From NCBI GenBank assembly GCA_004431415.1, contig QPMI01000424.1, positions 1 to 64,000 on the forward strand: 64,000 nucleotides of DNA. The letters run 5' to 3'. A program made the position numbers and the translations under genes. Of the stretch, positions 15,101 through 54,179 are shown in pieces. Under the pieces are notes generated by a model that ran no database searches, was not told the origin of the DNA, and was given only the letters and a program-made list of their open reading frames with translations. Source of the DNA: Cyanophora paradoxa CCMP329 (lineage: Eukaryota > Plantae > Glaucophyta). How positions within the stretch are numbered: the stretch's first letter is position 1; each line of letters opens with the position of its first letter.

Positions 15101-17285
15101 CTACGCCTTTGTCATCGGCAAGCCTTCGGGCAGCCTAGGCCTGGCACCACCGTGGCACGGAGGCGCCAGCTCGAGAGAGCCTCGGGGGCCGCAGTTGCAA
15201 TCGCATTTGAGGCGCCGCGGCGAGCGGTTTCATCTGCTTGCCGCAGTGCGCAGCCTCTCGCATCCGGCGTCCGCTGGGCCACTATAGCTAGCAGCGCCCG
15301 CGGCCAAACACCGATCGGATCCGAGCTCGGAATTTCGAGGCTAGGTGGCGCTCATGATCAGGCCTGCAGCTGGGACTGGGGCCACCAGCTGCAGGCTGGG
15401 CCGCAAGGCCTATGATCATGATCAGCTGGCCCGTACGCGTGGCCAGTGCACGTGGGGCCGCGGATTCACTGGGTCCCGCGGGCCGGCCCGGAGCGCCGGG
15501 CCTCATGATTGAGACCGTGCGCGTGACCGTGGCTAACGAGTGCCGAGGTGCCGCAGTGCTAGGCGTCGGCGGGCTGAATCAGGGCCACGGTTTGAGTTCG
15601 AAACGGCACTCGCGTGGCCGCGTGATCGCGACTTTCGGCGCCCGCCGGCCACGGGTTGGGAGTCTTGGGACCTAGTTTCGCGCTCGGTCGCGAAAATATG
15701 CCGCTAGCGCTGGGCGGCGGGCGCAGGCTTAAGAGGACGGCTGCAGCGGGGTTGCGTTCGAGGAGGCTCAGGGCGCCGGCGCCGGCGGTTACGTCCGGCG
15801 GTCGGCTTGTGCAGCCTCGCGCGTCCGAGTCCGGCGGCCACTCAGCGGCCAGGTCGCCAGCACCGCCGTGGTGCTCGCAGCCAAGCGCGCGCCTATTCGG
15901 CGAGGGTGATGCGCCCGGCGGCCGGGCCTCGAGCTCGCCGATCGATATTGCGAGTCGATCGTGGCCGCGGCTGCGCACGCGATCGCGAGGTTCCGGCGCT
16001 GTACATGCGCCCGGGCTCGCAGGGCATTCGCTAGATCTCCGAGGCTCATGACCAGCCGCTGAGCCCCAGGCCGCGCTACTGGGCCAGGGCCGCGGGTTGC
16101 AGGAGCTCAAGCGGCAGCTTGGGGGGCCGAGGAGGCTTTTCGCTTCGAATTAGCTGCCACGGGCCGGGTGCCACGGCGCGGGGTAGTCAGCGCTAGCTGC
16201 AGTTGCGATCTGAGTCCGTGCCCAGCTGCCGCAGTCACTGAGTGCAGCTGCAGCTGCAGCCGAGTTCGGTTTGCGAATGCAAAGCGATTTGCAGCCCGCG
16301 AAGCGCGTGGCCGCTGGGTTGTGGGGCCCTGGCCAGGAATCGAAGCCGCAGGGGACAGGCTTGGCGCGCGAGGCGCCGCCAGCGGCTGGGCCTTAAGCTT
16401 GTAGGGATCCGTGCTTGGACCCGTGCTTGCTGGGCGTTGCAATTGGATCCGTGCTTGCAACGCCGATCGGCAGCTGCAGCTGTGCACGCAGCGGCAGGCG
16501 ACGCCAGCACGGCGCCGTCGGAGTCATTCGAATTTCGCATGCTTCACCGCAAGAAAACTCGTAGGGGGTCGAAGGCAAGGGGCCTCCGCGGCCGAGCTCG
16601 AGGCTCGTGCGGGGTGAATTTCCCGGTTTCGCGGGCCGGATCATCGGATCCCCGAAGGGCCCTGCTGCGAAAACGGTATACCATGATAGCCCGGCGGATA
16701 AGCAGTACGCTGGCAGCTCGCGCTACGGCGGCACTGCGAAAAGCGATTTGAAGTGCACCGTACGCGTGGCACGCCGAGGGCGAGCCATGGGCCTCGCTAT
16801 AGACCCTGGCGGCGGCTGCTGCCCAGCCGTGGGTACAATTCGACGGCCGTGCGGGCACTGGCGTAATGATCGGCCCGGCGGCACTTGGCGGCATGCACGC
16901 CCAACTTGGCGATCATCGGATCGCGAGCCACGGAGCCCAAGTTCAAGGCTATGAGTGCGAGAGGGGCGTCTTGTGTGCGACCTCTAGATCTAGATCCGAT
17001 GATCTGAGACTCGAGATCCGGGCCGGTCACAGGCTCAGCTGTAACGCGGCTTGCAGCCTCAAGGCTTCATGGCCTATAGCTAGGCTTGGTGGCTGAACCT
17101 GGGCCGCAGCGGCGACTCTCCCAGCGAGCTCGAGCTTGAGCCGGCCGGCTTCCCCGCGGCCGGCGCTGACGCTCGTGGCCAGAAGCTTGAGCGAGCCCGG
17201 GGCTGGTGTTTGAGCCCACGAGAAAGCAGCGGCAGCCTGCAGGCAGGTACCCGGTGATGTCCCGGAGCGAGAACCGGAGCTTCTG
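12200..17285. other. Palindrome-saturated non-coding DNA (continues 42945-43980)
   Basis: Chains of overlapping 6-bp palindromes, e.g. (TTCGAA)n 13360-13392, GCTATAGCTATAGC 13884, TGATCATGATCA 15413, TGCAGCTGCAGCTGCA 16243, TCTAGATCTAGA 16983. Confidence 0.7.
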
Positions 17286-18220
17286 GCTCGCTTGGGGGTA
17301 GACCCCACCAATTGCGCGCAAAAAAAGCCGACCATGTCAATAAGCAGGTCTTACATCTCCCACAATTCTCAGTGCGAAAATCATAAATTCGCACTGAGCC
17401 ACACTATATTTTTCAAACATCTAACCCTTCCTTACTGAAACCAATCACGAAACCCTTTAATTCTCCATTTTTCTAATTCCTTACCATTCTCAGTAAGCCC
17501 TTTAACCCTCCCCCAATCTCTCAGTAAGGACAGTAAGACCCTTATTTTTACGAAATGTTCCCGATCGTTTCCAAACTGTTTTCAGTTACCCAAATTGAAA
17601 AATCCAGGTAGACCCCACCAATTAAACAAGTGATCCCCACTTAAAGACTTCCCGAATGTATAATGTAACAATGGCAAGCAATCAAGTAAATCTACCTGAG
17701 ACTAAGCGGTGCAATGTTTGCGATAAGGTAAAACCGGCATCGAGTTACGCATTGCAAAAGCGTAGCTCAGGGAATATACTTTTGAATTGGAGATGCAAAG
17801 ACTGCGACCGAGAGTATCACAATTACCTTTATCATTGTGTGTTAAAAACGCGTCCGAAAATCGAAGTACAATCGAAGATATGCTCGCACTGCAAGATTGA
17901 GAAGCTTGCAAGTGAGTTTAATAAAAGACAAAGAACGAAGGATGGTCTCAACTATCAATGCCGAGAGTGTTATAGCAAAACTCGTAAGAGTTAAACAGAA
18001 TTTAATTGTATATTTTTTAAAGCAAGTTTGTGCATGAGCAAGCATGCCGAAAATGCCCACCTGCACAAACTTGCGACTTCAATCGAAATGTACTTCAATC
18101 GAAATGTACTTCAATCGAAATGTACGAATCGAAATGTACGATTAGCATATTTACGACAAAGTACGACGATAGACCACGTTAAAATACACTCGCGCCCCGC
18201 CCACTATGCAAGATACATGC
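17286..18220 (+). repeat. Left TIR of PLV-1 (935 bp)
   Basis: Reverse complement of 42010-42944. One mismatch seen (position 8, T vs C). Contains 3x ACTTCAATCGAAATGT at 18076-18123. Confidence 0.95.
17656..17994 (+). CDS. TIR-encoded tandem C2-C2 zinc-finger protein (start may be 17671)
   Basis: CNVC...CKDC and CSHC...DGL..QCREC, resembling the Zn modules attached to viral HNH/EndoVII nucleases. No nuclease domain. Homologue in PLV-2. Confidence 0.8.
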   Translation: MYNVTMASNQVNLPETKRCNVCDKVKPASSYALQKRSSGNILLNWRCKDCDREYHNYLYHCVLKTRPKIEVQSKICSHCKIEKLASEFNKRQRTKDGLNYQCRECYSKTRKS

Positions 18221-18270
18221 GAACAACATGCGAGATACATATATAAATTGTTTTTCTCTTCCTATAATAA

Positions 18271-19080
18271 ATGAAGACTCACTTTTACCATAAATATACC
18301 GGCAACAAGTATAATGAAATGGATACGATCTATCCATATATCGATTTAGAAGGAATTAATAAAGTTATAGAACCGTTTTGTGGTTCAGGTGCTTGTAGTT
18401 TCTATCTTTGGGAAAAGCATAAAGACCGGTTTGATTATTATATGAATGATAACGACGAAACCCATACCCTTTTTTTGAATACAATGAAAGACCCAGACAA
18501 TAAAGTTAAACTCTTAGAGAGTCTTAAACAGTTCGAAGCAGTTAGCAATATAGAAGAGCATAAAGAAGTCTATAAGAAGTTTCTACAACATGATCGTAAA
18601 GATGCAATGGATTACTTAGCTCACCATTTCTATCTTCTTAAAAACAGCGTTTTAAATGTTAAAACCCTCCGTGATTTCAAAAAACGAAACGTGAAGGTGA
18701 GTCCATATACAACTCTTAAAAAGAAGATGCCTTACGATGATTTCATAAAAGGAGTCAACCTATCCCATGGGGATTTTCGCGATATTGTAGCCAAATATAG
18801 AGATGACGAAGCGGCTTTTATATTTCTCGATCCTCCATACGTAAACAGCAATAATGACTTTTACGAAAATGTAGAATTCGATTTAGAAACCTTCTTTTTG
18901 GATTTGGAAGACCTATTTAAGACAGCGAAATGCAAGGTTATGATGGTTGTAAATGATGCTCTTTTAATGAAACTCCTATTTAAACCCTATATTCGCCATA
19001 CGTATGGCAAAGTGTATGGTATAACAAAACGAAAAAGGAACCATATCATAATGACTAACTATGAACTTGGTGAAAAATAA
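18271..19080 (+). CDS. N6-adenine DNA methyltransferase (Dam/D12-like, alpha class)
   Basis: N-terminal YTGNK, SAM-binding EPFCGSG, YMND, and catalytic FLDPPY. Confidence 0.92.
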   Translation: MKTHFYHKYTGNKYNEMDTIYPYIDLEGINKVIEPFCGSGACSFYLWEKHKDRFDYYMNDNDETHTLFLNTMKDPDNKVKLLESLKQFEAVSNIEEHKEVYKKFLQHDRKDAMDYLAHHFYLLKNSVLNVKTLRDFKKRNVKVSPYTTLKKKMPYDDFIKGVNLSHGDFRDIVAKYRDDEAAFIFLDPPYVNSNNDFYENVEFDLETFFLDLEDLFKTAKCKVMMVVNDALLMKLLFKPYIRHTYGKVYGITKRKRNHIIMTNYELGEK

Positions 19081-19389
19081 CGACTCAGTCGTATATATAT
19101 TTCGTATATATGTCCGAACCTCCGTCTGTATGATCCCGCCCAACTTTGATTTTTTTGTGTTTTTTTTGTTTTTTTCGCATATGACGACATATACATATAT
19201 ATACCGGCGTCACCGACATATTCGGGGTCATCAGATCGCGGCGATTCCGAAAACATATAGCATGCGATAGCGTAGTATTTTTACCTGGCAGGTCTGATCG
19301 TAATGTGATAAACTCTATGGCTGATCGTAATGTGATAGGTGAGATCTCGCCTACGCAGCTCCCGCAGGCACCTTCGTTCGCAGGTCGAT

Positions 19390-19659
19390 GCTGTCAGCCG
19401 ACATGATGCGACAGTATCACGCTGTCAGCCGATATTATGGGGATAACATGATGCTGTCAGCCGACATGATGCGACAGTATCACGCTGTCAGCCGATATTA
19501 TGGGGATAACATGATGCTGTCAGCCGACATTATGCAAATAAAATGATGCTGTCAGCCGACATTATGCGACAGTATCACGCTGTCAGCCGACATTATGCGA
19601 CAGTATCACGCTGTCAGCCGACATTATGCGACAGTATCACGCTGTCAACCGACATTACG
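19390..19659 (+). repeat. Tandem array of 9 units with 31/32-bp period (GCTGTCAGCCGA core) in the main non-coding region of PLV-1
   Basis: Units start at 19390, 19421, 19453, 19484, 19516, 19548, 19579, 19610 and 19641. Confidence 0.95.
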
Positions 19660-20142
19660 TAAACTACGCCGAAACTAAGCCTTATAGTAGGTCTGTTATA
19701 CCTTTCAAATTCTCAGTTAGAAGCATAATAGCCGCCGGCTTTGATTTACCATAACACCGCGATCGCGACTCGGCGGCGACCCCCCCTTCCGTTTTCCGGG
19801 CATAACTTTGGACAGGAAGCTGATCTCGGCACGCTCTCAATTGCTATGTGCTCACAACTTGATTCCGGGCATGATGGTGCTACATTGACCAGCTTAGGCA
19901 ACCGTGGCGCGAAGCGCAAGTTCGCCATCGGCACAAGTGCCCGAAAACGGAGGTGTCCGCTACATTCTGAGCGCCGGCGCGCGTTCCCGTGCGGCTCCAC
20001 TAGTCATACTTCGCATCCGTGTGCGTATAGAGTAATTCTACGCTATTACAAAGCGGCGCAGTCGGATTCGCAAAGGTTGCGATTTGGCGGCTACAAAAGC
20101 ACACACAGCTCGTAGCTCACAAAAATATCGACTTAAATAATA

Positions 20143-20535
20143 ATGGATTCCCGATACCGCGGCTACCACGTTATGCTCGACTATATAACCGACCCGTTCA
20201 CCGACTCCCCGGAGGCATGCGCCGAGTGGATCACAGCGAACCTATCGCAATATATCACAGATCGCAAGATGCGCATCGTGCATCAGCACACTTGCATTTT
20301 CGATGGCTCTATTTCCCCTCCTGGTTTCGCGATTGGCTTTCTATTGGATGAGTCGCATGCGACAGCTCACTCTTACAGCGACCAGGGGCTATTAGCGATC
20401 GATATCTTTACATGCGGCTCAAACGCCGAAGCGAAGACAATGGGTATAGCACGGGACATTAACGAACTCATACAAGAAAGGCTGAAAGTTCGAAAGTGGG
20501 ACTTACAGGTCGAGCAAAGGTTCCCAATTTCATAA
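20143..20535 (+). CDS. speD: S-adenosylmethionine decarboxylase proenzyme (prokaryotic class 1b, pyruvoyl-dependent)
   Basis: 130 aa; N-terminal GYH..D, PPGF, autocleavage motif LDE^SH, HSY, and AIDIFTCG. Confidence 0.9.
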   Translation: MDSRYRGYHVMLDYITDPFTDSPEACAEWITANLSQYITDRKMRIVHQHTCIFDGSISPPGFAIGFLLDESHATAHSYSDQGLLAIDIFTCGSNAEAKTMGIARDINELIQERLKVRKWDLQVEQRFPIS

Positions 20536-20560: not shown

Positions 20561-20875
20561 TTAATGTTCCTTGATCGGAAACTTGCCCATTAGCGGGTGA
20601 TCGAGACCCATGACATACCAGCATCGCATGACGGGATCCCAGCGGGCTCTCTCAGCCTTCGCTTGATCCTTAAATTCATAAGGAATATCGAGGTAAACCT
20701 TCACGTTTCTTTGATACACTTGCTCATAGCTTAGAGTTTTGAACTGAGAGCATAGGGGGTGATCTTTCTTCGTGACATACCAGCATGAATTCTCACGATC
20801 CCACTTTCCACCGAGGGATTTCGCAACGTCTTTTTTATCATACGGAATGTCAACGAAATGCTTTTCACCCTCCAT
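20561..20875 (-). CDS. Tandem DUF5710-like domain protein
   Basis: Two repeats: FVDIPYDKKDVAKSLGGKWDRENSCWYV and YLDIPYEFKDQAKAERARWDPVMRCWYV. Confidence 0.8.
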   Translation of the reverse strand: MEGEKHFVDIPYDKKDVAKSLGGKWDRENSCWYVTKKDHPLCSQFKTLSYEQVYQRNVKVYLDIPYEFKDQAKAERARWDPVMRCWYVMGLDHPLMGKFPIKEH

Positions 20876-20888
20876 CGCTTTTATATTT

Positions 20889-20908
20889 ACCGGAGAAAAT
20901 AATTTCGG
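20889..20908 (-). promoter_or_regulatory. Putative promoter motif TATTTTCTCCG(G), also at 26658-26677, 27227-27239 and 27788-27798
   Basis: Four copies, each ~8-31 nt upstream of a minus-strand ATG. The first two are identical over 20 bp. Confidence 0.7.
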
Positions 20909-20914
20909 GGTTTG

Positions 20915-22297
20915 TTATGAACGAGATGACCGAAGAATGCGCGTAGTAGGGGCTGTGTAGCTTGCGCTCTGATTCTTGAATGATTTATACCACCGCTGAC
21001 TGTTTACCTCTGAGAGCTTCTCGGTTCCTGCGATCGTTAATTTGGCGAGCTCTCTCAGCGCTCTCTTCGTCTTTTCTGCGCGATCTTCCAGTAGGTCGCC
21101 TTTGGGAACGCTTGCGGCAACATCTATACCTTCCTTTTGAACCTGTCGGATAGAAGCGGCTTCTATTTCGGCTGCTTTGATTGCGTTGCCTGATGGTTCC
21201 ACCACAGCTTCGACCTCTGTAATGATCTGCAATTCGTGCGGCTTAAAAAGCTTCGGCATTACGTTTCCGGATGCATCTTGCACCTCTATTGCGTTTCCTC
21301 TCCTTCCCGCAATTTTGTAGACCTCTCGGCTATACCTTTGAGTCGCCCCTTTATCGAACTTCGATCTCGGCAATAACAGGCGGACGTGGAGACCCGGCGT
21401 AAAGTCGCTGAATATATCCTTGACGATCGTATTCTTTTTCGAAATAATAGCCGCTCGGATCCGATCCATATCAGTAAGCTTAACATCTGCGGGCTTCATT
21501 CCTATTGTTCTGTGAATGGTGTTGTTATAATTGAAAACGAAGTCGTCCAATTTGTCCATGAATCGAACTGTATTATAAGCGACACAGTAATTGTTTATCA
21601 TCGTTTTTAAGGTCAAATGAAAGCGATTCATTATTCCCAGCGAAGTGTGATCTCCGACCTGTTTAAAGCGGTGCTCTATTCCATTATTTTTCACGATCTC
21701 CTGAAACTCCTTCGCGACGAATTCTGAACCGTTATCTGTCTCTAATCGAACCATTGGAGCCGGGAGCTCTGTGAGCATCTCCGCAAAAGCGGCGGCAACA
21801 CTTGCGCCCTCCTTATTCTTTAACTTCTTGGCATATGCTTTTCGGCTCGTCATCTCAATGAGAGTAAGGACTGCAATGTAGCCGGAATTATAGCTGCCAT
21901 ATGAGAGATAAAAGATGAGATCCGCTTGATAGCACCACGGCGGGGCTGTGATGGGAATAAAGGCTGTTTGGGTCGGTGCGGGGGGCTTCTTGTTGATCTG
22001 CATAAATTCTTGTTTCGCTGCGACATCTTGCACTTCTTTCAATGTGAGGCTCTTGTCCTCTTTTCTCAGCTCTTCGTACAATGCCGATGGGTTCTTAAAA
22101 CCTGTCTTTGGGTCATACATGCGGCGCACGATCTTAGAGGACGGGTTAGCAATGCTAAAAGGAACATCTCCTAATAAATTTGATTTTGCTTGGCGTTTTG
22201 TGATTTTTTGGGGGACTTGCTCAGTCTCAGGAACCGCGATAGGTAGTATGGTGGTCTCTGTCTCCTCTCCCGCTACCCTTCTGACGATCCGTGACAT
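20915..22297 (-). CDS. Retroviral-type (rve) integrase of Polinton/PLV type
   Basis: YQADLIF, LETDNGSEF, GIMNRFHLTLK, YNNTIHRTIGMKP and VRL..PRSKFDKG...YSRE. The third catalytic position is Asn. Confidence 0.93.
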   Translation of the reverse strand: MSRIVRRVAGEETETTILPIAVPETEQVPQKITKRQAKSNLLGDVPFSIANPSSKIVRRMYDPKTGFKNPSALYEELRKEDKSLTLKEVQDVAAKQEFMQINKKPPAPTQTAFIPITAPPWCYQADLIFYLSYGSYNSGYIAVLTLIEMTSRKAYAKKLKNKEGASVAAAFAEMLTELPAPMVRLETDNGSEFVAKEFQEIVKNNGIEHRFKQVGDHTSLGIMNRFHLTLKTMINNYCVAYNTVRFMDKLDDFVFNYNNTIHRTIGMKPADVKLTDMDRIRAAIISKKNTIVKDIFSDFTPGLHVRLLLPRSKFDKGATQRYSREVYKIAGRRGNAIEVQDASGNVMPKLFKPHELQIITEVEAVVEPSGNAIKAAEIEAASIRQVQKEGIDVAASVPKGDLLEDRAEKTKRALRELAKLTIAGTEKLSEVNSQRWYKSFKNQSASYTAPTTRILRSSRS

Positions 22298-22315: not shown

Positions 22316-25300
22316 TTATTTTTTGCTGCAATTGCACCCGTGATGCGCGAGCTGGCAATTGTCTTTAAGATGCGGGCGCCTGTTGTTTATGCGATCCACG
22401 ACGAGCTTGTAATTCGGATCTTGCGGCTCAATCGGAATCGGAAGGGAACAGAGCGCACAGGCGCCCTTCTGTTGCTTTTTGCGCTCTAATATCCACTCCG
22501 GCGTAATATAATCCGCCTCGTCGAAATCGCGCCCGGCACGCTGATCCTGGCATTTATAACCGCGGATCTTTGTTTTCAGATATTCGATGTAGTCACTCTT
22601 TCCTTGGAACTTGTGAATCGGTGTATAAATCAGCACAGTGGACAGATCGCGGTTACGAGTGAGAGCGGTATAGAACCATTCGCGAGTGGTATAGCGGAAC
22701 GTAGCCTCACAAATGACAATGCCCGAATCAAGTGTGAGACCTTGCGTTGAATGACCTGTTCCTGCATAAGGGAGAGAAAAATGTTCTAACATCGCGCACG
22801 GAACCTCGAACGTGACGCCATCGAAAACGTCAGTTAATGTGACCATTTGCTTTGTAATTTTGGTGATCCGATAGGTGTAATTTGTGTATGCATTAATAGA
22901 CTCACCCTCAGACCGCGAAATGCGTAGATACCTGCGACAAACGACTTCCAGACCCTTGTAGAATTTGATGCCGTTGACCTCTACGGTTGCAATATTTACT
23001 TTTCGTCTATCGTGCATCAGTTTGTTATAGGCTAAGGTCATTTCGTTTCTGTAAGCGATGCCAAAGTAGCCGTCAGGAATTGCGTTTAGATCATTAATTG
23101 TCGGCAACCCGTATTTCGAGATAATCTGTGCGGCTTCGAGTCCGTTTTCGAAGAGATCCTCTTTGATCGCCCGAATTAATTCACGGTCTGTCTCCTTCTT
23201 GTGCCGCTTGTTAATGCGTAGACTCAGGACGTTAGGGAACATGCTCTGAACAGCGCGCTTATAGTAGCCCTTGCGATCAGAAACCGAGAGCTCGTCATTA
23301 ATTGGTTCGTTCTGATAGGTATCGCCATTAGCCAAATATTTGATATCCGGATAGCGATCGATAAACGACTTGATCTTAGCGAGATCTTTTACGGAATACG
23401 CGAATATCTCGTCGAACATAATGTGACTGAACTCGGAGACGAACGCCCTCTGGTCTTTTTCGCTCATAGCCTCTTCGTAGGTCTGATCATTTGAGACACG
23501 GATCCCGAGAACATTATACAAAGTACGAACGGTAATATTTTCGATTCCGCGGACTTTCAGGGAGTCCCTTAGCTCTGCGCACTGTTTGTTATAGGGGCAA
23601 ATAACTAAGCAATTCGACTTCTGAGATGCGAAACAGTTAATACCGAGTGTCGACTTTCCACTTCCGGGCATGTCAGCAAGGACAAGCATACGATTATGGA
23701 GCTCCGCAACCCAATTAAAGCACTCAGGATTAAATTCGTCCCTCAGCGAGAACCGGTTAATGAGTGTCTCGGGATCCTGAAATTCGAGAGTTACACCCCG
23801 TGGTGGGCGGAGTGCATTCTCAGGGCATCTTTTCCCGGGAATATAGCTGAATTTGCCCATGTTCTCAAACGCATTTCGGTCGAACTCTTTCTTACTTGTC
23901 CATGAACCTTCGATATATAGACAGTCCGTTCTGATCCCGGCAACCTTGTGCCCGCGCGCTGTCAGGCGCTTGTATTGCGCAAACATATTAGCACGGTTGC
24001 GATCGTAAATATGAAAGTGGATAGGAAGGAATCCGTTAACGAGCTCGCGGTGGGAGCTGATCTTAACGAAATAGATGTGACCTTCGAATTCGCTAAGAGT
24101 TTTGACACGTTTCGAATTCTTAGGATTGAAAGTAAACACCTCTACTGTTCCTCCGCATTCTTGGGCGAACCTCTCAGCCTCGGCACGGTTGTAGAACATT
24201 TTCGTGGATGTTTGCGAGTCTTGGAATTTGCCGAGCATTCCGATCTCTTTCACTAAAATGTGTTTCTTGTCCGTGGTTTGAATGTCACTTGAAAGCACTT
24301 TTTTCATCTCAGCGATCGACGTATTGGGCACCAAATGCGAAGGCTCCGCGACCGCGATAATCTCTATCTTGTCCTTTACGTCCGCCCAGTGCATGGCGAG
24401 AGTGTAGCCTGTCATGAAATTATAACAGCGACCACTCACGGAAAATGCGCGATCCAGAATAATTTCGACTCCATCAATCTTGCGAGACATGGCGGCATCA
24501 TAATCTACATCCTCATCGTCGGCGAAAGTCGCTTGCTCTCTCTCAAACGCGACCACACGCACGTAGTAGATCGCGTATTCGAGAATATCGCTTCCCACTT
24601 TAAAGGGAACGAAGTCATCGAATACATTGTATTTCGGAAGATATTGCATGCCTTTCAGTATCGAAGGGTAGCACTTCGCCATATCGACGGCTGTGTAGGT
24701 GGCTTTTGGGTTTGGCTTATAGAAATAACCGCTGAGTGCCGATCGCTTGTAGTGCGTGAGAATTTCGCGCATGTTCGGGCTGTAATGTGAGATATTCGTG
24801 GCATTTAGAAGCGACTCCCGGAATCCCTTCCCGATTTCACAGACCTTATTATAATACTCTTCTGTTTCGAAATCTTGCTCAATAAAGTGGTCGGTTGTGC
24901 GTGGATCTTTGATAGAAAACATCGACCCATTGGCTTTGAATGTGATGCTGTCGATTTGTTTCGATGGTGTTAGCTTCACAGCGGGCTCATATCGCATTTT
25001 CAGGAACGTAAATAGAAGACCTTCCAGACCTTCACGCCCAGTATACAGAATGCGAATGAAACTGCGCTCGTCGGGCGATAGTTTAAGTTGCGTGATCTTT
25101 AACAGATCCTTGGATGTGTGCGCGAAGATATCGTGAGTAAGACACGTCGGAATTTTATAGAGTGCTAACGAAGAGTTCGACTTAGGAACATGATTATCGA
25201 GCTCTTCGACCTCCATCTTTGCCATGCGCATTTCGAGCGACTTGATGTTATCGTTGAATATATAGATGTGCTTGTTGTGAATCATAAAGTGAATATTGCG

Positions 25301-26635
25301 GGGAAATATGTTTTTGTTAATCGATTCCGCCGCGAATTTGTATATTAACTTTCCGTCGACATCAAAGACGCGGAAGCCTGTCTGGATTCTCTTACAGAAT
25401 TTCTCGATATGGCGGAGGGTGAGAGCCAGAGAGTCGCCAGGTGTGCGCTCACGACCGTGAAAGAATTTATAGAGACCGTCGTACGACATAGTTAAGTCAG
25501 TATATCGCGGTTTTGGCGCCTCCTGACACTTCTTAATGGACGCTCCCCATGTGGAGATGATCATATCATAGCCGCAAGCGTTAGATGTCGATGATTTGGG
25601 AAGCTCTATTAGATCTTCGAACTCAGACGCGTTTGGATTTAATGTATAGTCTGTGAATTTGCTCATAATCGCGGTGCATCGCATACTGTCCATTAGCTCC
25701 TCATCCAGGAACGCGTAGCGATTGCCAGGTATAGCGCCGGCTCCATCATCATCCTCAGCCGCTTCGGCTCCATCAATCGCGATTTCGTGGACAGTTACAA
25801 AGGCATCATCGATGCTACTACCGAAGTCCACTAAGATTTCACGTAGTTTTCTCTGTTCCGCGGTTGGTGGTGTCTTAAAGAAGAACACCTCGTATGCTTC
25901 GCCGAAAGTTCCCAGACCCATAGCCAATTCATCATAGTTTTCGAGTAAATAGAAGATTGAATCGCTCTCTTCCGAATAATAACGATTTTGATCGGGTCGA
26001 ATGAGAACTCCATACGCTTTATCGATTTTTGCCAGAGCAAAGTTTCGCAACACCCTCACCGAAACTGTCTCTCTTATATTGCGGTAGGTGACAAAGGTTC
26101 TATCTGGTATATTTAATTCGGGAATTCCGGGACGAACGAGCATATCCGACGACCGAGCACCGGATCCAGGCGCCCACATCTTGAACGTAATTGTTGCGAG
26201 AGTTTCCGGATCGTATGCGGCGATTGGGTCGAGAATAGTGCGTTTGATCGCATCCTCTACCGCTTTTAGTTTACCTCTCTGCTGCTTTGCTTCGAGCTTC
26301 GCTTCTTTCGCTCGTTTCTGTTCTTGCTTGCGATCGAAGCGCTGTAAACGCTTAGCCTCTTGTTCTTTTTGCTTCTGCTTTTCTATATTAACTTGGGTGC
26401 GAGCGGCGCGCTTTTCTTTCCGCTCTGCCCTGCGGAAAACGCGGGGATTAATGATTCCATTCAGAGTATCCCGAATGTCGATCAGCGTTTGGAGCTTGGG
26501 CTTCCGATTCATTGTGTTGTGCATCGCCCAATGCGCCTGTTCTTCGGTTAGCAAATCCTGACTCAATCCCTGCATAATGTATCCGATAATTTCATCCCGA
26601 ACATTGTTAGCGATTCTGTTGGTTGCGCGCGGCAT
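22316..26635 (-). CDS. Replication polyprotein: candidate vOTU-like protease + family B polymerase-like palm + SF1 (RecD/Pif1-like) helicase + HNH-like domain
   Basis: NACGYD...HNKHIY (Cys/His); DMAKCYPS, KHILVKEIGML and IRTDCLY (PolB A/B/C variants); PGSGKST, FDEI, GDTYQNEP, HSTQGLT and YTALTR (SF1); CALC...VDRINN..HLKDNCQLAH.GCN (HNH-like). Confidence 0.85.
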   Translation of the reverse strand: MPRATNRIANNVRDEIIGYIMQGLSQDLLTEEQAHWAMHNTMNRKPKLQTLIDIRDTLNGIINPRVFRRAERKEKRAARTQVNIEKQKQKEQEAKRLQRFDRKQEQKRAKEAKLEAKQQRGKLKAVEDAIKRTILDPIAAYDPETLATITFKMWAPGSGARSSDMLVRPGIPELNIPDRTFVTYRNIRETVSVRVLRNFALAKIDKAYGVLIRPDQNRYYSEESDSIFYLLENYDELAMGLGTFGEAYEVFFFKTPPTAEQRKLREILVDFGSSIDDAFVTVHEIAIDGAEAAEDDDGAGAIPGNRYAFLDEELMDSMRCTAIMSKFTDYTLNPNASEFEDLIELPKSSTSNACGYDMIISTWGASIKKCQEAPKPRYTDLTMSYDGLYKFFHGRERTPGDSLALTLRHIEKFCKRIQTGFRVFDVDGKLIYKFAAESINKNIFPRNIHFMIHNKHIYIFNDNIKSLEMRMAKMEVEELDNHVPKSNSSLALYKIPTCLTHDIFAHTSKDLLKITQLKLSPDERSFIRILYTGREGLEGLLFTFLKMRYEPAVKLTPSKQIDSITFKANGSMFSIKDPRTTDHFIEQDFETEEYYNKVCEIGKGFRESLLNATNISHYSPNMREILTHYKRSALSGYFYKPNPKATYTAVDMAKCYPSILKGMQYLPKYNVFDDFVPFKVGSDILEYAIYYVRVVAFEREQATFADDEDVDYDAAMSRKIDGVEIILDRAFSVSGRCYNFMTGYTLAMHWADVKDKIEIIAVAEPSHLVPNTSIAEMKKVLSSDIQTTDKKHILVKEIGMLGKFQDSQTSTKMFYNRAEAERFAQECGGTVEVFTFNPKNSKRVKTLSEFEGHIYFVKISSHRELVNGFLPIHFHIYDRNRANMFAQYKRLTARGHKVAGIRTDCLYIEGSWTSKKEFDRNAFENMGKFSYIPGKRCPENALRPPRGVTLEFQDPETLINRFSLRDEFNPECFNWVAELHNRMLVLADMPGSGKSTLGINCFASQKSNCLVICPYNKQCAELRDSLKVRGIENITVRTLYNVLGIRVSNDQTYEEAMSEKDQRAFVSEFSHIMFDEIFAYSVKDLAKIKSFIDRYPDIKYLANGDTYQNEPINDELSVSDRKGYYKRAVQSMFPNVLSLRINKRHKKETDRELIRAIKEDLFENGLEAAQIISKYGLPTINDLNAIPDGYFGIAYRNEMTLAYNKLMHDRRKVNIATVEVNGIKFYKGLEVVCRRYLRISRSEGESINAYTNYTYRITKITKQMVTLTDVFDGVTFEVPCAMLEHFSLPYAGTGHSTQGLTLDSGIVICEATFRYTTREWFYTALTRNRDLSTVLIYTPIHKFQGKSDYIEYLKTKIRGYKCQDQRAGRDFDEADYITPEWILERKKQQKGACALCSLPIPIEPQDPNYKLVVDRINNRRPHLKDNCQLAHHGCNCSKK

Positions 26636-26804
26636 CTCTATTAGTTCTTTTAAAATAACCGGAGAAAATAATTTCGGCGCAATCTACCAAATCCTCCTTT
26701 TCATACCCTTGTCGCCAATTCTTTAAGTGCTTTTTTGACGGATACGGGGAATAAAAAGGGAGGTAAAAAATTAATCATTTTTTGCATCGTACGGATACTT
26801 TCCG

Positions 26805-27218: not shown

Positions 27219-27342
27219 TTACTATAACCGGAGAAAATAGTTTTTTGTCACTCTGTATTATTTCCCTTGCCCTTATATACCTTTTACCGAAACCTTCAAT
27301 TTTTGCGCTCGGATCGATACAAGCGCCACCGAAATTCACCGC

Positions 27343-27756: not shown

Positions 27757-27805
27757 CGATCCTACAAGGACGCAACGTATTAAATATCGGAGAAAATAAA
27801 AGGGA

Positions 27806-28646: not shown

Positions 28647-29513
28647 TTATCTTCTCTTACATTTGATTAACATTTTCTTTTTCTTAGGCGAAATTTGGGA
28701 AAGTTTGGGGATACCTTCAAGCTCACGTTCAAATTTGGATAAAGTTTTACAGACAGTTGTCGAATCTTTGACAGGCGGCGGTTTTGTAGCTTGCTCCTCT
28801 TGCTGTTTGCGCTTCTTTTCTTCAAAAGCCGCCCGCTTGTGGAATTTAGTAAACGGATGGTCATCGATCATATCGGCTTTTTCTACCCACCATCGCACAG
28901 AATACCCGGTATTATCGTGAATGATCGCTTGGTAGCTATGACAGAATTCTTGGAACATGCGCTTGAAACTCTCTTTATCCATGTTCCCGAATTCCTCGTG
29001 ATATGCTTCAAACTCTCGCATGTTTGACCAGCTTAGGAATATGATATACTCCGCATTGCTGCGAATGATCGTTGAAAGCTTTGTTAGTTTCTGCGATATT
29101 AAAGCCACGGAACAAAACGTATGACGACCTTGCGCCATCAATTTATTTAGCAAATGATCGCGCGAAAGATCGATAGTTCCGGACTCCAAACAATCGTCGA
29201 GCACAATGAGAATATTCTTTGGTTTCTTACCCGCGATGATGGCTTTTTTGCGGGCTTCTATGATCGACTCTACATATTCCGGTTTCCAGGTATCATGCAC
29301 TTCGTCTGTTATTTGTCCCCAGAAACCGTTGAAACTCGTAGGACAGAAAACCAGAACATACGAGATCTGATCTTCGAGTTCTTTGATCAGCCACTTTAAA
29401 AATACCGACTTTCCACAATTGGTTTTCGCCAATAAGAGAAATCGTGCGGGAAGTTTCACCCTCTGTTTCGGGTTCCATTCTTCGAGATCCATGGGCGTCG
29501 TCCCTTTTTGCAT
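28647..29513 (-). CDS. A32-like FtsK/HerA genome packaging ATPase
   Basis: Walker A AKTNCGKS, Walker B LIVLDD, GRH, ISQ and IRSN. ATG at 29513 is preceded by TATAGTGAAAGA. Confidence 0.93.
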   Translation of the reverse strand: MQKGTTPMDLEEWNPKQRVKLPARFLLLAKTNCGKSVFLKWLIKELEDQISYVLVFCPTSFNGFWGQITDEVHDTWKPEYVESIIEARKKAIIAGKKPKNILIVLDDCLESGTIDLSRDHLLNKLMAQGRHTFCSVALISQKLTKLSTIIRSNAEYIIFLSWSNMREFEAYHEEFGNMDKESFKRMFQEFCHSYQAIIHDNTGYSVRWWVEKADMIDDHPFTKFHKRAAFEEKKRKQQEEQATKPPPVKDSTTVCKTLSKFERELEGIPKLSQISPKKKKMLIKCKRR

Positions 29514-29571: not shown

Positions 29572-30885
29572 TTAGCTACTTACTCTTCGGATACCGTCGG
29601 CACCAATTATCATTATGTTATGAGCGAGGGCAATGCACTGAATTTGCATCTTCTGATAAGCGGCACCCGCATACCACTCCTCATTACCGACTCCACCGGC
29701 TGTGACACCATTGAATTCGAAGACCAGATCGAACGCCGATGTGCCTGTGGCATCGATGTAGCCCGTGTTCTCTTGGTTGAGAAGCGACGCCTTTCCGTTT
29801 CCAGCACCGAAGTAAATGCCAGAGAGAGCCGGGTAGCTTGTGCTCTCGGTGAAAATCGCCGAATTATATTTATCTTGAAGTTCGGTCGCGGCAATCATGA
29901 GAGGAAGCGAAGTATTCGAGTAGAGGCGGTTATTGTTGAGTTCCACATAGAAGCTTACAGCGTTGGTTCGGAGTGCACGAGGAGCCAGAACCGAGAGAGT
30001 TCCGTTGTTCACCTTGGTCTTCGCGTTTTGGCGCACAGAGAATACGAGAGTGTGGATGAGACCCGCACCTGTGAGTTGCGAGAGATTGACTCGCGAACCG
30101 GAGGCGGTCGGCTGGAAATCTGTGTGGAGGAAACCGATTTCGTTGTAGGGGATCGCGATACCAGTCGATTTAACACGGGCAATGGTCTCAGATACAACCG
30201 CCTCATCGGCATTTACGACCTTGCAGATAATGCGGGGTTTCAGCACTTGAAGGGAAGCGCCATTGTTGGTAACCGCAATATTGGCAACATTGTTAGTATC
30301 CTCAATGATACCATCACCAATCGCCTTGAATTCGATTTCGACCACGATCTCAGAGTTCAGAGCGCAAAGTGGGAACATCGCCTTCTCGAAAGGAGAGGGT
30401 AAATCGATTTCGTAGGTTCCACCGACAGTGTTACCAGCGGTTCCGACAAGACCACCCACATAGCGAAGTTTCTTATCGAGTTCGCCCTGTTCGGTCATCA
30501 GTAGAAAATACTGGGTGACGAAATCCTCTGGGACAACGTAGCGGAATGAAGCGTGAGAGATTTCGATGCGCTTAATTAGCGATCCAATAACGCGAAGGTA
30601 GCCAGTAGTTCCAGCGACACCATTCGTGAGATCAGTGAGGGTGATCGGGTTAAGATCGAGTTGCAGCGCGAGACCATTCAGGAAATGGTAGCGGGGGATT
30701 TTGAAGACAACTCGGTTGCCGAGAGCGCTGGGTGGCTCAGTGTCGGGGGCGACCAGAACTCGAAGTGGCTTAGTGCCAGAGGACGTTCCAATGACCAGCG
30801 ACTTGTTTAGGAAATAATCCTTGTAGTCATCGGTGGTGAGCATAGATTTCAGCGTTGGGCGCTGGAATTGGCTGTTAGTCTCCAT
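29572..30885 (-). CDS. Major capsid protein (double jelly roll), 437 aa
   Basis: VVFKIPR..FLNGLAL.L, IKRIEI and FPLCALNSEIVVEIEFK motifs; lies between ATPase and penton; start supported by the PLV-2 copy. Confidence 0.85.
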   Translation of the reverse strand: METNSQFQRPTLKSMLTTDDYKDYFLNKSLVIGTSSGTKPLRVLVAPDTEPPSALGNRVVFKIPRYHFLNGLALQLDLNPITLTDLTNGVAGTTGYLRVIGSLIKRIEISHASFRYVVPEDFVTQYFLLMTEQGELDKKLRYVGGLVGTAGNTVGGTYEIDLPSPFEKAMFPLCALNSEIVVEIEFKAIGDGIIEDTNNVANIAVTNNGASLQVLKPRIICKVVNADEAVVSETIARVKSTGIAIPYNEIGFLHTDFQPTASGSRVNLSQLTGAGLIHTLVFSVRQNAKTKVNNGTLSVLAPRALRTNAVSFYVELNNNRLYSNTSLPLMIAATELQDKYNSAIFTESTSYPALSGIYFGAGNGKASLLNQENTGYIDATGTSAFDLVFEFNGVTAGGVGNEEWYAGAAYQKMQIQCIALAHNIMIIGADGIRRVSS

Positions 30886-32727: not shown

Positions 32728-34221
32728 TCACACGTAGTAGCCCTCGAAATCAATTCGGCATGCCGAAGCTACGTTCGTCGAGAGCACCCAGATTACGAGG
32801 GTTCTCACAGATCTCGGGTTCGCTAAGAAATGTTCGTCGGGCTCCGCACTTCCGGCTATTTGATTTGCATTGGTAAACACTCTCGTCGCGCCGGCTTCTG
32901 TGTATGTAACAAGCGCAGAAACTCCGGGAGTGAGCTGGTAATCGATCTCAAACGTTTTAATATAGTTGCCATTCGCAGCCGGCTTCATTTTTATTGAGGA
33001 AAGCATGAACAGACGCGGAAAATCAATGCGTAAATAATTGCCTCCCGACCTACTACCTTGCGGCGGGTTTGTAAATCCCACCCACCCCGTAGCATTTGAC
33101 CAGCGGGCATTGGAGGCTGTGCCGAATTCCGCAATAAAGGCGCTATTATCGAGCGGCACCCAGTTAGACTCCGGGGGTGCACTTGTATCTGTGCACCCGG
33201 ACAGATTAATTATGGGAACATCGCCCTCTGAGATATTCATGGTCAGCACTGAATACATCGCATTAAAATACGTTTGCTGTGCGGAAACAAAGGTGAGGGC
33301 TTCCGTTTCCAAATATTGCAGGTGACTGGTCGTGATCGTATCGAGAGTCATTTTATCTTTCGGTAAAGGCACACTCAGCTTATAGTAGCGATCGTAGTTC
33401 TGATCATCATTTCTGGGTAAAAGTTCCAGTAGCTTTACGTGAGCGTTTAGATCGCTCGACTCTAAGAACATGCTGAGAATTGGCGATCCTGTGGCGCTTA
33501 GCATCCATTGCACGATCCCCCAATTTTTCATGGTGTCATACGAATATCCAGCTGTCGCTTTATCTAAGTCTTGGACGTGACCCGCCGTAATCGAAACCAC
33601 GATAAGCTCCTCCTCGCAAGAGTTTCCGAATAAAGTGCGGGCGAATGTGTAGCCACAAACCCCGGGCGAATTATTTCCGCTCATGCAACCATCGATTAAA
33701 CAGTATGTTCTCCCGGCGACTGTGACTTGTTTCGGCTCGAAATAGGTGGGAGCAGCCGAGGTAGCCCTTGCAGCATCTCGCACAAGCATCCCATTAATAT
33801 CTTCGTCGTTGCTGGAAATAAAAACGGGGGACATTAAGACCGTGTCAAACGCAGTCACGATGGTGGGTTTATAGAGATCCGCCATGGTCGCTGAGCCGCA
33901 GAGTTCCAGAGCCACAGCTTCTAAGTTAGTTGCTTCGTACTTTGGGCGCTGTACAATCGATGTAAGCACTCGTGGATTCGCGAAAATCAGCGGTAGCTTT
34001 GCTTTGTAGAGCGCCAGAATATCAGTGGCAGTATATTTAGGGGCGCCATCGGTTCCCTTGATATTCAATAGGAGCGCGATTAATCCACCTGTGGATGTTC
34101 CCGCAAAGCAGTCGAATAGCTGTTGGATTCGTTTACCTGTTTGTGCTTCAATCTGTGCCAGTATAGCAGCCTCGATTATTCCGCGCGACCCCCCTCCACT
34201 CAGACATAAAACGGTCTTCAT
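32728..34221 (-). CDS. Patatin-like phospholipase with C-terminal discoidin (F5/8 type C-like) domain
   Basis: LSGGGSRG, GTSTG nucleophile, ATSAAPTYF and IDG(C); C-terminal YLRIDF...YIKTFEIDY...CRIDFEG. Confidence 0.92.
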   Translation of the reverse strand: MKTVLCLSGGGSRGIIEAAILAQIEAQTGKRIQQLFDCFAGTSTGGLIALLLNIKGTDGAPKYTATDILALYKAKLPLIFANPRVLTSIVQRPKYEATNLEAVALELCGSATMADLYKPTIVTAFDTVLMSPVFISSNDEDINGMLVRDAARATSAAPTYFEPKQVTVAGRTYCLIDGCMSGNNSPGVCGYTFARTLFGNSCEEELIVVSITAGHVQDLDKATAGYSYDTMKNWGIVQWMLSATGSPILSMFLESSDLNAHVKLLELLPRNDDQNYDRYYKLSVPLPKDKMTLDTITTSHLQYLETEALTFVSAQQTYFNAMYSVLTMNISEGDVPIINLSGCTDTSAPPESNWVPLDNSAFIAEFGTASNARWSNATGWVGFTNPPQGSRSGGNYLRIDFPRLFMLSSIKMKPAANGNYIKTFEIDYQLTPGVSALVTYTEAGATRVFTNANQIAGSAEPDEHFLANPRSVRTLVIWVLSTNVASACRIDFEGYYV

Positions 34222-34264: not shown

Positions 34265-37200
34265 ATGTCGTTCCTGAATCCGAGACCCGATGCACGAGTA
34301 ATTAATTCGACCACGCAGATAGAGGACACTGACCAGGTAAACACCGAAATTCGTGGGTCTATCAGAATAAATTACAATGCAGACCGCGAAGATCCAGTCA
34401 GTGGAACACCGAGCAGACCCGCAGCTTTGCAGTTAATGAACGTCGAGAAGGGGGATCATAAACTTGGAATCGACTTTTTACTTGATGATAACGAGCGAAA
34501 CAGAGTTGCCAGCATCCAGGCGACTCGGCAGTTACCGAAAACGGTGCGCTATAATCGCAGGAACATTCCCAAAGCATTCGACAAGGGTCGCTTAAACTTC
34601 TTTATCCAAGATGAAAGCGGTTTCCAAAATGCAGCTATGAGAATCGTGGATAATAGCACGCTTATAGCCGGGGTTTCAAACAGACAGACAAAGGTAGAAA
34701 TTGTTCACGGTTTATCTACAAGTAATTTGACAGCAAGTAACATTACCACGAATACCCTAAACGTAAACTCGCTTAACTCTGAGTCGTTTTTCGCCACTAA
34801 TGTCGCTACATGCAATCTAACCCTTGATTCATTTATAATTCAGAAGAGCAACACTGTTCCCCAAATCACAGAGGGCGTTTTTACAGTAGATCCCGCGAAA
34901 CCAGTGTTAGAGATCCTCGAAAACGGGAGCGTTGTAAATATAATTGGTGCCAATGCCCCGAATGTGCGATCCATAGCTCTTGATAAAACGACTATCTCGT
35001 TTGCTGAGGAAGTTCCGACATTTACCACAGAGAAACAAGCACTGAGAACCGATCACGTTCACATTACCAGACAAAATGTAAACGATCTTTTGGGCAAGGA
35101 CATTGTAAAGGCGTTTTTGGAGTTCGAGAGGAACAAGAACACCAAAGATTCCAGCCAGGATGGAACCCTCACGACTCACACAACCGAAATAGCCGCAATA
35201 CAATCGGAGATTAATGCACTGTTTGCAGCAGATGGAGCGCTTGCAATTACCTTAGCCCATATTCTATCGAAAAGGAACATTTACCCCGCGACTGATAACA
35301 CATACCGAGTTGGTCTCTCGAATCTGAGATGGTCAGAGGTGCATGGAGTTTCCATGTTTGCCTCCAATTTAATCCTTCCATTAAATCACTCACTCCGACC
35401 TAATCAGATTCTTACCAATGATAATGCACTGATCAGCTACACCGACTATAATAGTAATCTTTCCCGCTCGGTTTCGCAAACTGAGACCTACACTGTCGAG
35501 GGATACCCTCAGCAGCTCGCAAATGGGGTCTATGTCGCTTATGTAGGCAAACCTACATATACATTCACTTGGGATCAGTTGGGTGTCACAGGTTTCGAGA
35601 CGAATATACCCACTGTTTCATTGGTGGATCACACTACTTATTATAATCCTATCTATAACAATAATGAATCTAATAAAGCATTTATCCAAAATGTCACCTC
35701 CACAGGGTTTCAGGTTTCGTTTGTCATTAACGAGACATACAATTTACTTATCATCCGAAACAACTCATTTAGTTCCGAAGCTACTATTAGTTTCACTCTC
35801 ACCATCAATTACATTAGCCCTGTATTCGATAGCAAACCCAGAGTAAAGGTTTACCGAGATTTACAAGGTAGCAATATCGTTCCTTTCTCACAGAATTTCG
35901 ATCTTGGGGCGAATTCTTTGAGGTGGAACACAGTTTACTCAATGAATGCAAACACCTGTAATATTGTGGTCGCAGGTTCATCGGCTACTATTGGAGATCT
36001 GACCGCCCCTTTCAAAAGGAGTATCTTAAAGAGCTGTATATTACAAAGTCTGATTTACCAGATGCTATTTCGTTGGTGCTCTCCCCGACTCCCAGCATCT
36101 CATACCACAATGTGAAAGACACCAGTAATGTAGTGCAGAGGGGAAGCAAAGTATTCCAGGCATCCGAGATATCAGCAACAACATATAGATACCTTGCAGC
36201 GGTTCCAGCGAATTTTAATTTCACATTTGAGACACCATTTGTTTCCCCTCCTACTATTGAAATTACCGACACGAATTTGTATGTGGTAAATGATGGGTCA
36301 GCTACATCACTTCAAAATGCACCAGCCGGCTACTCTCCATTTGTCGCAACAAATATAACAACAACCGGCTTTACACTTGTCGGAAATGCAACAGTGACCT
36401 ATGCTCTGTCAGGATATCCTGTTGGGTTGTATTTTTCGAAATTTAATCTCTCTGTTATCCCAGCAGTGTCTCTTGCTCCTCCCTTTACTATCAGTTGGAA
36501 GGCAACAGGAACTATTCCACGATTTGACCCCGAAGATCGATTAAAAATAAGGTATCCTCTCGATGTTACCGACATTCATACTACGAGAATAAATGGGCAG
36601 AATTTCGTATTTAATGGAACCAATGCGACTCTGATCGATAATCGAGTTACAAATAATTACTTTTTCGATTCTCGATATATTAATACTTGCAATATTGTCA
36701 TACAAAACACGTTTGAAAATCGCAGTAAGACCTTAACAGTCACCTTGCCCACTCACTCGAATGTCTCAGATGGATTTCACTATTATCTTTTCAATCGTAA
36801 TTACACCTCATATATTCCATATCCTTCTGAGACTGTCAACATGAGCTATCCCAGAGTCACCCTAACATCGACCAATGCTGACTTCTTTGGATCCACGGAC
36901 TTTATGACCTTCTTTGCTTTCACATCGTCCACAGATGGTCTCTTAGTTTATTACACTTTCAGGTATGATGCTGTTTGGACTCAGCTTGACAGCCACCCAA
37001 ATACAGATGTAATTGAAGTGGGCGATAAGAAATATATTAAAACCGCTTCCCCATGGGTGTGCACTGTCCGGCTCGATGATAGATACACTCCCAACCTAAA
37101 TAACATTGGAATGCACTCGACTTGCAATATTTATGTGCAAGGTGCAATTTCGGCTACCAAATATTTCGAGGGTGGGAACTGTGATGCAGCCCATAGGTTG

Positions 37201-37971
37201 CTATCGAGAAATGGACTCTTTGAGTCATTTAGTGGGACAGCTCTACCCCCTTTCATCAGGGACACAGTCTATGATACTACATGCAATATTTGGGTGTGCC
37301 GATCTGTGAGCAACCCGCCTGTAACACAGGAATTATACAAGTATCTCGCAGATAAATATGGTGCAATCGCAGGCTCATCAACAGGAAATCCAGCGACGGC
37401 TCCCATCGTGTTTGCAAATGCATACACAGCGCCAACGTCGTTAGCAGGGTCGACAGAGCCGCCACCAAACGATCCCAATCCGAACCAGCCTAACCCAGAT
37501 CCCGATTCAAAAGATCCCCCTACAACTGATCCAGATCCGAACACGACACCTAATAATCCCTCAAATCCTACAAATCCAGTCGGATCGCCAGGAATGGATC
37601 CCGGGACGTTAGTGCTTCTCATTCTCTTGCCAATTCTCGGTGCCCTTGGACTTGTGCTTGCATACAAATTCCGAGCTTTATGTTGTGCTTGCATAGACAG
37701 AACCATTGCAGGAGCAGGTAATAAATACTCAACGCCTGAACTGAATGTGACCCAAACAGCCGAAGGAGATGTGGGGTTAGAGGTGAGGTCAGCCGAGGGG
37801 CATGGTCTTAGTGTAGTGAGAACTGATCAACCACCAGCAAGTAGGGCAGCACCCAAAAAATCGCGAGCAGAACGAATGGCTGAATCAATAATAAAAGATA
37901 ATGCAGACTTTATGGCGGAAATGGCACAGCGAGAAGGGAGAATATATGAACATGTTCCAAATGTTATGTAG
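34265..37971 (+). pseudogene. Large fibre-like protein with C-terminal TM helix, frameshifted at 36014-36017 (real or sequencing error)
   Basis: ORFs 34025-36115 and 36073-37971 join if one A is added (A4 here, A5 in PLV-2), matching the intact PLV-2 gene. Confidence 0.85.
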
Positions 37972-52765: not shown

Positions 52766-52860
52766 CTTTCTTATGCATGATCTATGAAAAATAACAATAA
52801 ACCCAGTCGTCAGACAAGCTGCCTTGGCTGCGCCTCTCTCATTCTTCGAATTCGAATTCT

Positions 52861-53124: not shown

Positions 53125-53133
53125 TCTTTTACT

Positions 53134-54159: not shown

Positions 54160-54179
54160 CTTTAAATTGCTCTTTATAA

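Follow-up and report, generated by a model that had tools for sequence, protein, structure and literature searches.

Viruses are known to encode several kinds of SpeD homologue: cyanophages and algal viruses carry S-adenosylmethionine decarboxylases (AdoMetDCs), pelagiphage HTVC201P carries an arginine decarboxylase (ADC) and phages carry ornithine decarboxylases (ODCs) (PMC9992855). The same source describes polyamines as needed by viruses for translation and DNA packaging, and the SpeD fold is described as having changed substrates on at least three or four occasions (PMC10407285). Most Polinton-like viruses (PLVs) carry methyltransferases (MTases), which have been proposed to guard against restriction by co-infecting giant viruses (10.64898/2026.06.19.733378). 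Viral SpeD homologues, their substrate shifts and PLV MTases are thus already on record. Here we analyzed a 64-kb window, the whole of positions 1 to 64,000 of Cyanophora paradoxa CCMP329 contig QPMI01000424.1, in which a 25.7-kb PLV (17286-42944) is integrated in GC-rich host DNA and carries a SpeD-fold gene (20143-20535) and a DNA MTase gene (18271-19080). The original prediction described them as an S-adenosylmethionine (AdoMet or SAM) decarboxylase next to a DNA adenine methyltransferase. Our comparisons instead argue that these are probably two separate traits, a SpeD-fold protein that would decarboxylate arginine and an optional MTase cassette that would guard against restriction. What appears to be new is the recurrence of this decarboxylase group in giant-virus contigs and in six further small, PLV-like viruses.

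The decarboxylase and its predicted substrate

The 130-residue product of the open reading frame (ORF) at 20143-20535 (+ strand) matches PF02675 with 44.8 bits (E = 1.8e-11, cut-off 25) and contains E70-S71-H72, H76 and FTCG (C91), which bears out the predicted intact SpeD-fold gene with an E^SH cleavage site and an FTCG motif. Residues S71, H76 and C91 equal S63, H68 and C83 of the Thermotoga maritima enzyme; the Ser, His and Cys of the class 1b SpeD fold are needed for self-cleavage and catalysis (PMC10407285). The predicted fold is that of a class 1b AdoMetDC (mean confidence, pLDDT, of 93.4), and a Foldseek search with the model returned the T. maritima and Aquifex aeolicus enzymes (2iii, 1vr7 and 1tlu) with a TM score of about 0.70. 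Across the copies in host sequencing runs, 10 of the 13 variant sites listed in the gene are synonymous, compared to a synonymous share of 22% expected by chance, while the other three change residues conservatively, and indels are absent from the list. These proportions indicate that the gene is maintained and, as judged from its codons, under purifying selection. With S71, H76 and C91 also intact, it is very improbable that the decarboxylase is a dead passenger.

Homology searches connect the protein to enzymes that act on arginine. A profile search retrieved 1481 proteins, and among the 120 best were named members from Emiliania, Poseidoniales and Tribonema minus, including KAG5182568 of T. 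minus (P0062). That enzyme has been assayed and is active on arginine with a Km of 0.72 mM, with no activity on ornithine or lysine (PMC10407285). According to the same paper, members from Poseidoniales, marine group (MG) II/III and Solirubrobacter failed to complement an Escherichia coli delta-speD strain. An unfiltered phmmer search gave 290 matches, the best of which include PQ-loop fusions and a protein of Chromulina nebulosa, the nearest named relative (42%). The earliest relatives found (L001-L003) are GC-rich cellular genes with N-terminal extensions and about 40% identity, a single-sequence word search gave no match, and an Atlas search with the homologue P0103 returned generic AdoMet_dc clusters. 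Two records (L004 and L005) are weak metagenome matches, two protist homologues (P0191 and P0202) carry a fused PQ-loop domain, and in two proteins (P0190 and P0199) a decarboxylase-like stretch is present twice.

The best 80 of 90 prokaryotic loci were all archaeal metagenome-assembled genome (MAG) records, titled Poseidoniales, Thalassarchaeaceae, MGII or Euryarchaeota-type. In the sampled neighborhoods (L006 and L080), the adjoining genes are SpeY/DHS-like and agmatinase genes, fused once, and a spermidine synthase was matched in none of five archaeal MAGs with the decarboxylase group (genomes incomplete). This arrangement is as described for SpeDA, the arginine-decarboxylating group, in the available text of PMC10407285. 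In one archaeal MAG (L080:3100-5305), the agmatinase gene is followed by that of a 434-residue SpeD-fold/SpeY-like fusion.

Direct comparisons gave BLASTP scores of 70-120 bits against 22 members of the group and 30-48 bits against 12 canonical rows. In three trees, whose ingroup rows were picked by likeness to the query and whose canonical side was made up of tested phage AdoMetDCs and speE-linked bacterial SpeDs, the query, T. minus and Poseidoniales proteins split from canonical SpeD with support values of 96/93, 100/99 and 100/98. The decarboxylase groups with the set that contains the tested ADC (KAG5182568) and falls outside the tested AdoMetDCs in the best trees. Its score against the AdoMetDC equivalog TIGR03330 is 46.7, short of the cut-off of 75.65, although this model is a poor discriminator, as three of four tested phage AdoMetDCs also fall below it. 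By sequence kinship, arginine is quite probably the substrate, and 'AdoMet decarboxylase' is the name of a fold for the 20143-20535 protein and not of a shown substrate. The label in the original prediction therefore gives way, while its aside that some homologues decarboxylate ornithine or arginine, as far as arginine is concerned, becomes the main story through kinship with the T. minus enzyme.

Several observations weigh against this assignment. Approximately unbiased (AU) tests do not reject trees in which the query is joined to the canonical rows (p = 0.21 and p = 0.197), the bootstraps of the last two trees are unsettled, only one tested ADC is among the tree rows, and the trees are without the tested algal-virus AdoMetDCs of Heterosigma akashiwo virus and Yellowstone Lake phycodnavirus 2. 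The T. minus enzyme is about 35-40% identical to the query and lies in another subgroup, while none of the 12 rows of the query's subgroup (99/99) is a tested enzyme; the available text of PMC10407285 does not mention a SAM test of the T. minus enzyme. The H-x-x-P proline, found in 11 of 12 canonical rows but neither in the query nor in any of 322 motif-bearing homologues (17 of 339 stored homologues failed the motif pattern and lie outside this count), is also missing from the tested AdoMetDCs of phages phiYS40 and phiN3. Without this proline and with the P-x-G proline, either of which may be the diagnostic gamma proline of Fig. 8 in PMC10407285, the query has the pattern of the T. minus ADC.

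Some of these observations would also suit a true AdoMetDC, which would either feed decarboxylated SAM (dcSAM) to a host spermidine synthase or drain SAM to counter methylation silencing, with the MTase unrelated. The modeled fold and catalytic residues match those of an AdoMetDC, tested class 1b AdoMetDCs are carried by algal giant viruses (PMC9992855), a position next to canonical SpeD survives the AU tests, and the query keeps the P-x-G proline. We nevertheless consider this explanation unlikely. The close kin are all in the group with tested ADCs and the TIGR03330 cut-off is missed, a weak point in view of the phage enzymes that miss it too. By established chemistry, the viral MTase itself depends on SAM and would run short of it if the pool were drained.

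Alternatively, the query's protist subgroup could have shifted to another amino acid or amine, or be bifunctional, which we regard as rather unlikely. The absence of a tested member from the subgroup, the fold's repeated changes of substrate noted above (PMC10407285), and Ser77 of the query, where most kin carry Cys, are all compatible with such a shift. PQ-loop fusions, present in two of the four decarboxylase kin scanned, make a transporter-linked role possible, although such a link would fit arginine as well, basic amino acids being the cargo of some PQ-loop proteins. A change to ornithine is opposed by the sequence itself: the four ODC-diagnostic residues (Gln, Thr, Phe and Tyr), whose positions were paired by eye with the Fig. 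S5 text of the cited paper, are absent from the query (FLLDESHATAHS...LLAID, compared to QLIETSLISGHF...VYLD in the ODC domain), which argues against a SpeDC ornithine decarboxylase.

The group of the predicted arginine decarboxylase is not confined to this element. An IMG/VR scan with a 25-sequence decarboxylase alignment found 17 viral loci, whereas scans with the single decarboxylase or with narrow alignments found only 0, 0 and 1. The group is present in three GVMAG giant-virus contigs (L188, L189 and L191). Six further contigs, 4-20 kb long (L192, L194, L195, L196, L198 and L200), also carry it; a gene block with an A32-like ATPase is found in five of them and a primase or primase-helicase in four. 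We call these six PLV-like from their size, A32 ATPase and primase-helicase, with the capsid unconfirmed; a 454-residue candidate capsid of L194 (model pLDDT 29.5) had no hhalign match to the capsid candidate of the window. L198 also carries a deoxynucleoside kinase gene and L200 a SET domain. In a tree, the viral decarboxylases make up a group of 11 rows (96/92) to which the query's subgroup does not belong, a pattern that suggests that viruses captured the decarboxylase at least two times. A titles-level literature search gave no report of a PLV or giant-virus gene of the arginine-decarboxylase group, and the available texts of 10.1101/2022.12.26.521929 and of two PLV preprints mention neither a decarboxylase nor polyamines.

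The methyltransferase and its linkage to the decarboxylase

The ORF at 18271-19080 (+ strand, 269 residues) matches the D12 MTase family PF02086 with 58.6 bits (E = 1.1e-15, cut-off 22). It contains EPFCGSG and LDPPY, with the FxGxG and DPPY motifs in alpha order, and is thus the intact DPPY methyltransferase that had been predicted. Its score against TIGR00571 is 50.2 (cut-off 114.85), and the same motifs also occur in the N4-methylcytosine (m4C) enzyme M.CbeI. The sole PDB sequence match, a distant one of 39 bits, is 7M6B, which is M.CbeI (PMC8616854). That enzyme was annotated as D12 adenine-specific and has DPPY, yet it makes m4C at GGCC (PMC3425538). The 'adenine' in the original prediction is therefore not established, and the product may be N6-methyladenine (m6A) or m4C.

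The closest viral kin of the MTase in IMG/VR are 17 loci on contigs of 4-24 kb (most of them 14-23 kb), eight of which have a virophage-type capsid match. They are 27-38% identical in BLAST-type matches and lie mostly on virophage- or PLV-like contigs, and the FxGxG and DPPY motifs are common to virophage kin without SpeD. The composition of the gene (GC 0.336, third-position GC (GC3) 0.341) differs from the GC3 of the core genes (0.47-0.56) and of the decarboxylase gene (0.59). A second MTase allele has 10 silent changes among 15 differing codons (among the variant rows listed, with double changes merged). GATC is mildly enriched in the element (141 versus 120) and avoided by the two closest MTase kin of the first scan.

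As had been predicted, both genes lie co-oriented near the left end of the small virus, on the plus strand. The integrated element has terminal inverted repeats (TIRs) and a CTTCTG duplication. The genes are not directly adjacent, since 1062 bp with tandem repeats separate them. We found that contigs in all four host sequencing runs join 18234 to 19076, with a shorter side of 40 bases, and skip the whole MTase gene; the cassette (18235-19075) is absent from these sister copies. A second joint, from 18231 to 20121 with sides of 27-29 bases, is present in two of the four runs and ends 22 bases before the decarboxylase start. Contig depths over the MTase and the decarboxylase were 605 and 1772 in run X1, about 1200-1270 and 4363 in X2, and inconsistent in X7, a hint that about one copy in three carries the MTase, depth not being copy number.

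The two genes are also found apart in other viruses. With flanks of up to 10 kb, none of the 17 closest MTase loci in IMG/VR has a SpeD and none of the 17 viral decarboxylase-group loci has a D12 MTase. SpeD appears in 3 of 80 more distant MTase loci, all canonical, and the two inspected are cyanophage-like. The MTase is a separate, optional gene that is not paired with the decarboxylase. Two facts weigh on the other side: no contig with at least 31 bases on each side joins an MTase-less left end to the decarboxylase, and L198, one of seven small viral loci screened, has a small NPPF-type MTase-like gene adjoining its decarboxylase gene. A further such case is Croceibacter phage P2559S (L089), where the start of a tested AdoMetDC gene lies in an overlap with a methyltransferase-domain gene.

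The original prediction had speculated that dcSAM from the decarboxylase is used by the neighboring transferase to hypermodify DNA. We consider such aminopropylation hardly credible, even though both genes are co-oriented in one copy, L198 offers a different MTase-like neighbor and the P2559S methyltransferase-domain gene adjoins speD. The idea needs both a SAM substrate and linkage. Arginine is the likely substrate, the MTase is skipped in sister copies of all four runs, and co-occurrence is zero in both sets of 17 loci, with only the three canonical SpeDs among the 80 distant ones. The MTase itself has ordinary FxGxG and DPPY motifs, as in its SpeD-less virophage kin. A joint SAM-based system is therefore unsupported, and the survey of linkage in relatives, which had been proposed as a check, returned none. 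We accordingly rejected a coupled SpeD-transferase DNA hypermodification system, as conserved linkage was found neither in the sister copies nor in the IMG/VR loci.

Restriction-site avoidance and a proposed mechanism

The element has lost nearly all copies of four palindromes. Outside the TIRs (18221-42009), the observed and expected counts are 0 and 37 for GGCC, 1 and 37 for CTAG, 7 and 53 for GTAC, and 1 and 20 for GGWCC. Compared to synonymous-codon shuffles of 17 coding sequences, GGCC occurs 0 versus 32.6 times, CTAG 0 versus 32.1 times and GTAC 6 versus 53.4 times. The sister element (52780-64000) is likewise nearly without GGCC, CTAG, GTAC and GGWCC, while no loss of these sites was found in the host flanks of the window. 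This difference points to restriction pressure on the element. Each TIR of the first element keeps five GTAC sites, most of them in or beside a 16-bp tandem repeat. At least one 4-bp palindrome is avoided in 14 of the 17 closest MTase loci, and no such avoidance was found in the three GVMAG giant-virus loci with the decarboxylase.

The MTase is likely to shield viral DNA from restriction enzymes, judging by its kin and by the missing sites. Restriction-modification systems of giant viruses have been described (PMC7253447, PMC6459981), and an algal giant virus methylates CTAG, of which its own genome has few copies (PMC12700378). The sites could also have been lost through a host nuclease or methylation-linked mutation. 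A titles-level literature search found no report of restriction-site avoidance in PLVs or virophages.

On our preferred reading, the decarboxylase proenzyme would cleave itself between Glu70 and Ser71 and form a pyruvoyl group, and the cleaved enzyme would turn arginine into agmatine, as its tested kin do. Host enzymes would then carry agmatine on to putrescine and higher polyamines during virus replication, probably in cells that a giant virus has infected as well. The nucleases behind the palindrome loss would belong to that giant virus, and the MTase, gained and lost at a position next to the left TIR, would mark one further restriction site. No dcSAM would be formed. As an arginine decarboxylase makes no dcSAM, neither SAM depletion nor aminopropyl-DNA is expected. 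The proposal that SAM depletion or dcSAM blunts methylation silencing of the provirus thus loses its footing, because it needs a SAM substrate and arginine is the most likely one. Of the proposed polyamine supply for DNA packaging, the broad idea of feeding the polyamine pathway survives via agmatine, and the route through dcSAM is not favored. As predicted, the element has no spermidine synthase (0 of 20 element ORFs scanned with Pfam). Two links in this scheme are putative, the host agmatine pathway and the helper virus, neither of which was seen, and this counts against it. The decarboxylase may alternatively serve to drain arginine from a competing giant virus.

On the preferred reading, a 25-kb host-dependent virus maintains a predicted polyamine-pathway enzyme under purifying selection, pyruvoyl arginine decarboxylases would extend to eukaryotic viruses and PLVs would gain a metabolic gene. 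The near-total loss of four sites supports, at the sequence level, the restriction conflict that has been proposed for PLVs and giant viruses, and offers a means of guessing at the helper virus of an element from its missing palindromes. A bolder reading, less likely than not, is that PLVs acquired a pyruvoyl arginine decarboxylase on two or more occasions and retain it as a stable gene that steers the arginine and polyamine pool of cells infected by a giant virus, and that the palindromes missing from each element (here GGCC, CTAG, GTAC and GGWCC) are a fingerprint of the restriction enzymes of its helper virus.

The element and its relation to known systems

The 6-bp target-site duplication CTTCTG (17280-17285 and 42945-42950) and the TIRs (17286-18220 and 42010-42944, without strand), which the inverted-repeat search found to be 936 nt and 100% identical, define the element's span. 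Its GC is about 0.39-0.50, while that of the host DNA around it is mostly 0.52-0.72 in the window's GC profile. An rve integrase, an A32 ATPase, a helicase-motif protein, a patatin, C1q/fibre proteins (found by a Pfam scan of the ORFs) and a likely capsid identify it as a PLV. It has the size (15-40 kb), TIRs, duplication, integrase, A32 ATPase and capsid gene by which PLVs are recognized, the capsid by Atlas features only.

The left TIR contains a Zn-finger-like ORF of 112 residues (17656-17994) and the 16-bp tandem repeat (18076-18139). Between the MTase and decarboxylase genes lies the 1062-bp spacer (19081-20142) with 31/63-bp tandem repeats (19387-19657), in which no conserved ORF was seen. 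A tandem DUF5710 protein, identified by Pfam, is encoded convergently with the decarboxylase (20561-20875, - strand). It is followed on the minus strand by the rve integrase (20915-22297; PF00665, E = 1.3e-13), a 1439-residue replication protein (22316-26635) whose C-terminal part is superfamily 1 (SF1)-helicase-like by weak Pfam matches and whose polymerase part is inferred, and the A32-like packaging ATPase (28647-29513; PF04665, E = 1.7e-10). The likely double-jelly-roll major capsid protein (29572-30885, - strand, 437 residues) has an Atlas feature score of 0.98 to clusters in which 12-18% of the proteins carry Capsid_N/Capsid_NCLDV, with a recognition value of 1863 that is under the tool's threshold and makes it a lead only. 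A viral scan with this capsid as query found no relatives.

A patatin-like phospholipase with an extra C-terminal domain is encoded among the capsid genes (32728-34221, by Pfam). The motif TTTTCTCCG is repeated upstream of four minus-strand genes (20876-20915, 26636-26675, 27219-27258 and 27757-27796) and is possibly their shared promoter. Two ORFs of 616 and 376 residues (34265-37971) match a single 1239-residue ORF of the sister element (55673-59392), so this gene looks broken in the first element. The sister, in inverted orientation, begins near 51820 (51820-64000); its far end, where the MTase and decarboxylase would sit, falls beyond the window. The two elements are 91-98% alike over the capsid-to-fibre block, with differing TIR parts and divergent C1q/fibre genes, and the sister's capsid frame is split in two (62801-63187 and 63187 onward). 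The host DNA contains a GC-rich repeat array at 402-1463 with a spacing of about 120-130 bp.

Four described systems resemble parts of this locus. Phage SAM lyases are SAM-depleting anti-restriction enzymes. The element is like their carriers in that it seems to face restriction and differs in that it loses sites and has an optional MTase, with no evidence of SAM destruction. The D12/alpha-class MTases of PLVs and virophages, together with M.CbeI, share the FxGxG and DPPY motifs in alpha order with the MTase here, while the likeness to M.CbeI (m4C at GGCC) is only distant at 39 bits.

The virus-encoded SpeD homologues of PMC9992855 are alike as small, pyridoxal phosphate-independent polyamine-pathway genes carried alone. 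They belong to another lineage, and in the available text their eukaryotic-virus enzymes are true AdoMetDCs and no PLV or virophage is listed. The SpeDA group of Poseidoniales, Gimesia, Solirubrobacter, Nannochloropsis and Tribonema (PMC10407285) is alike in the class 1b fold, in the catalytic Ser, His and Cys, in the common core PPGF...DESH..AH.Y..G.LA.D.FTCG and in one well-supported tree group with the T. minus enzyme. Unlike those members, the gene described here belongs to a protist subgroup without a tested enzyme, has no adjoining speB or speY, and is carried by a 25.7-kb eukaryotic virus.

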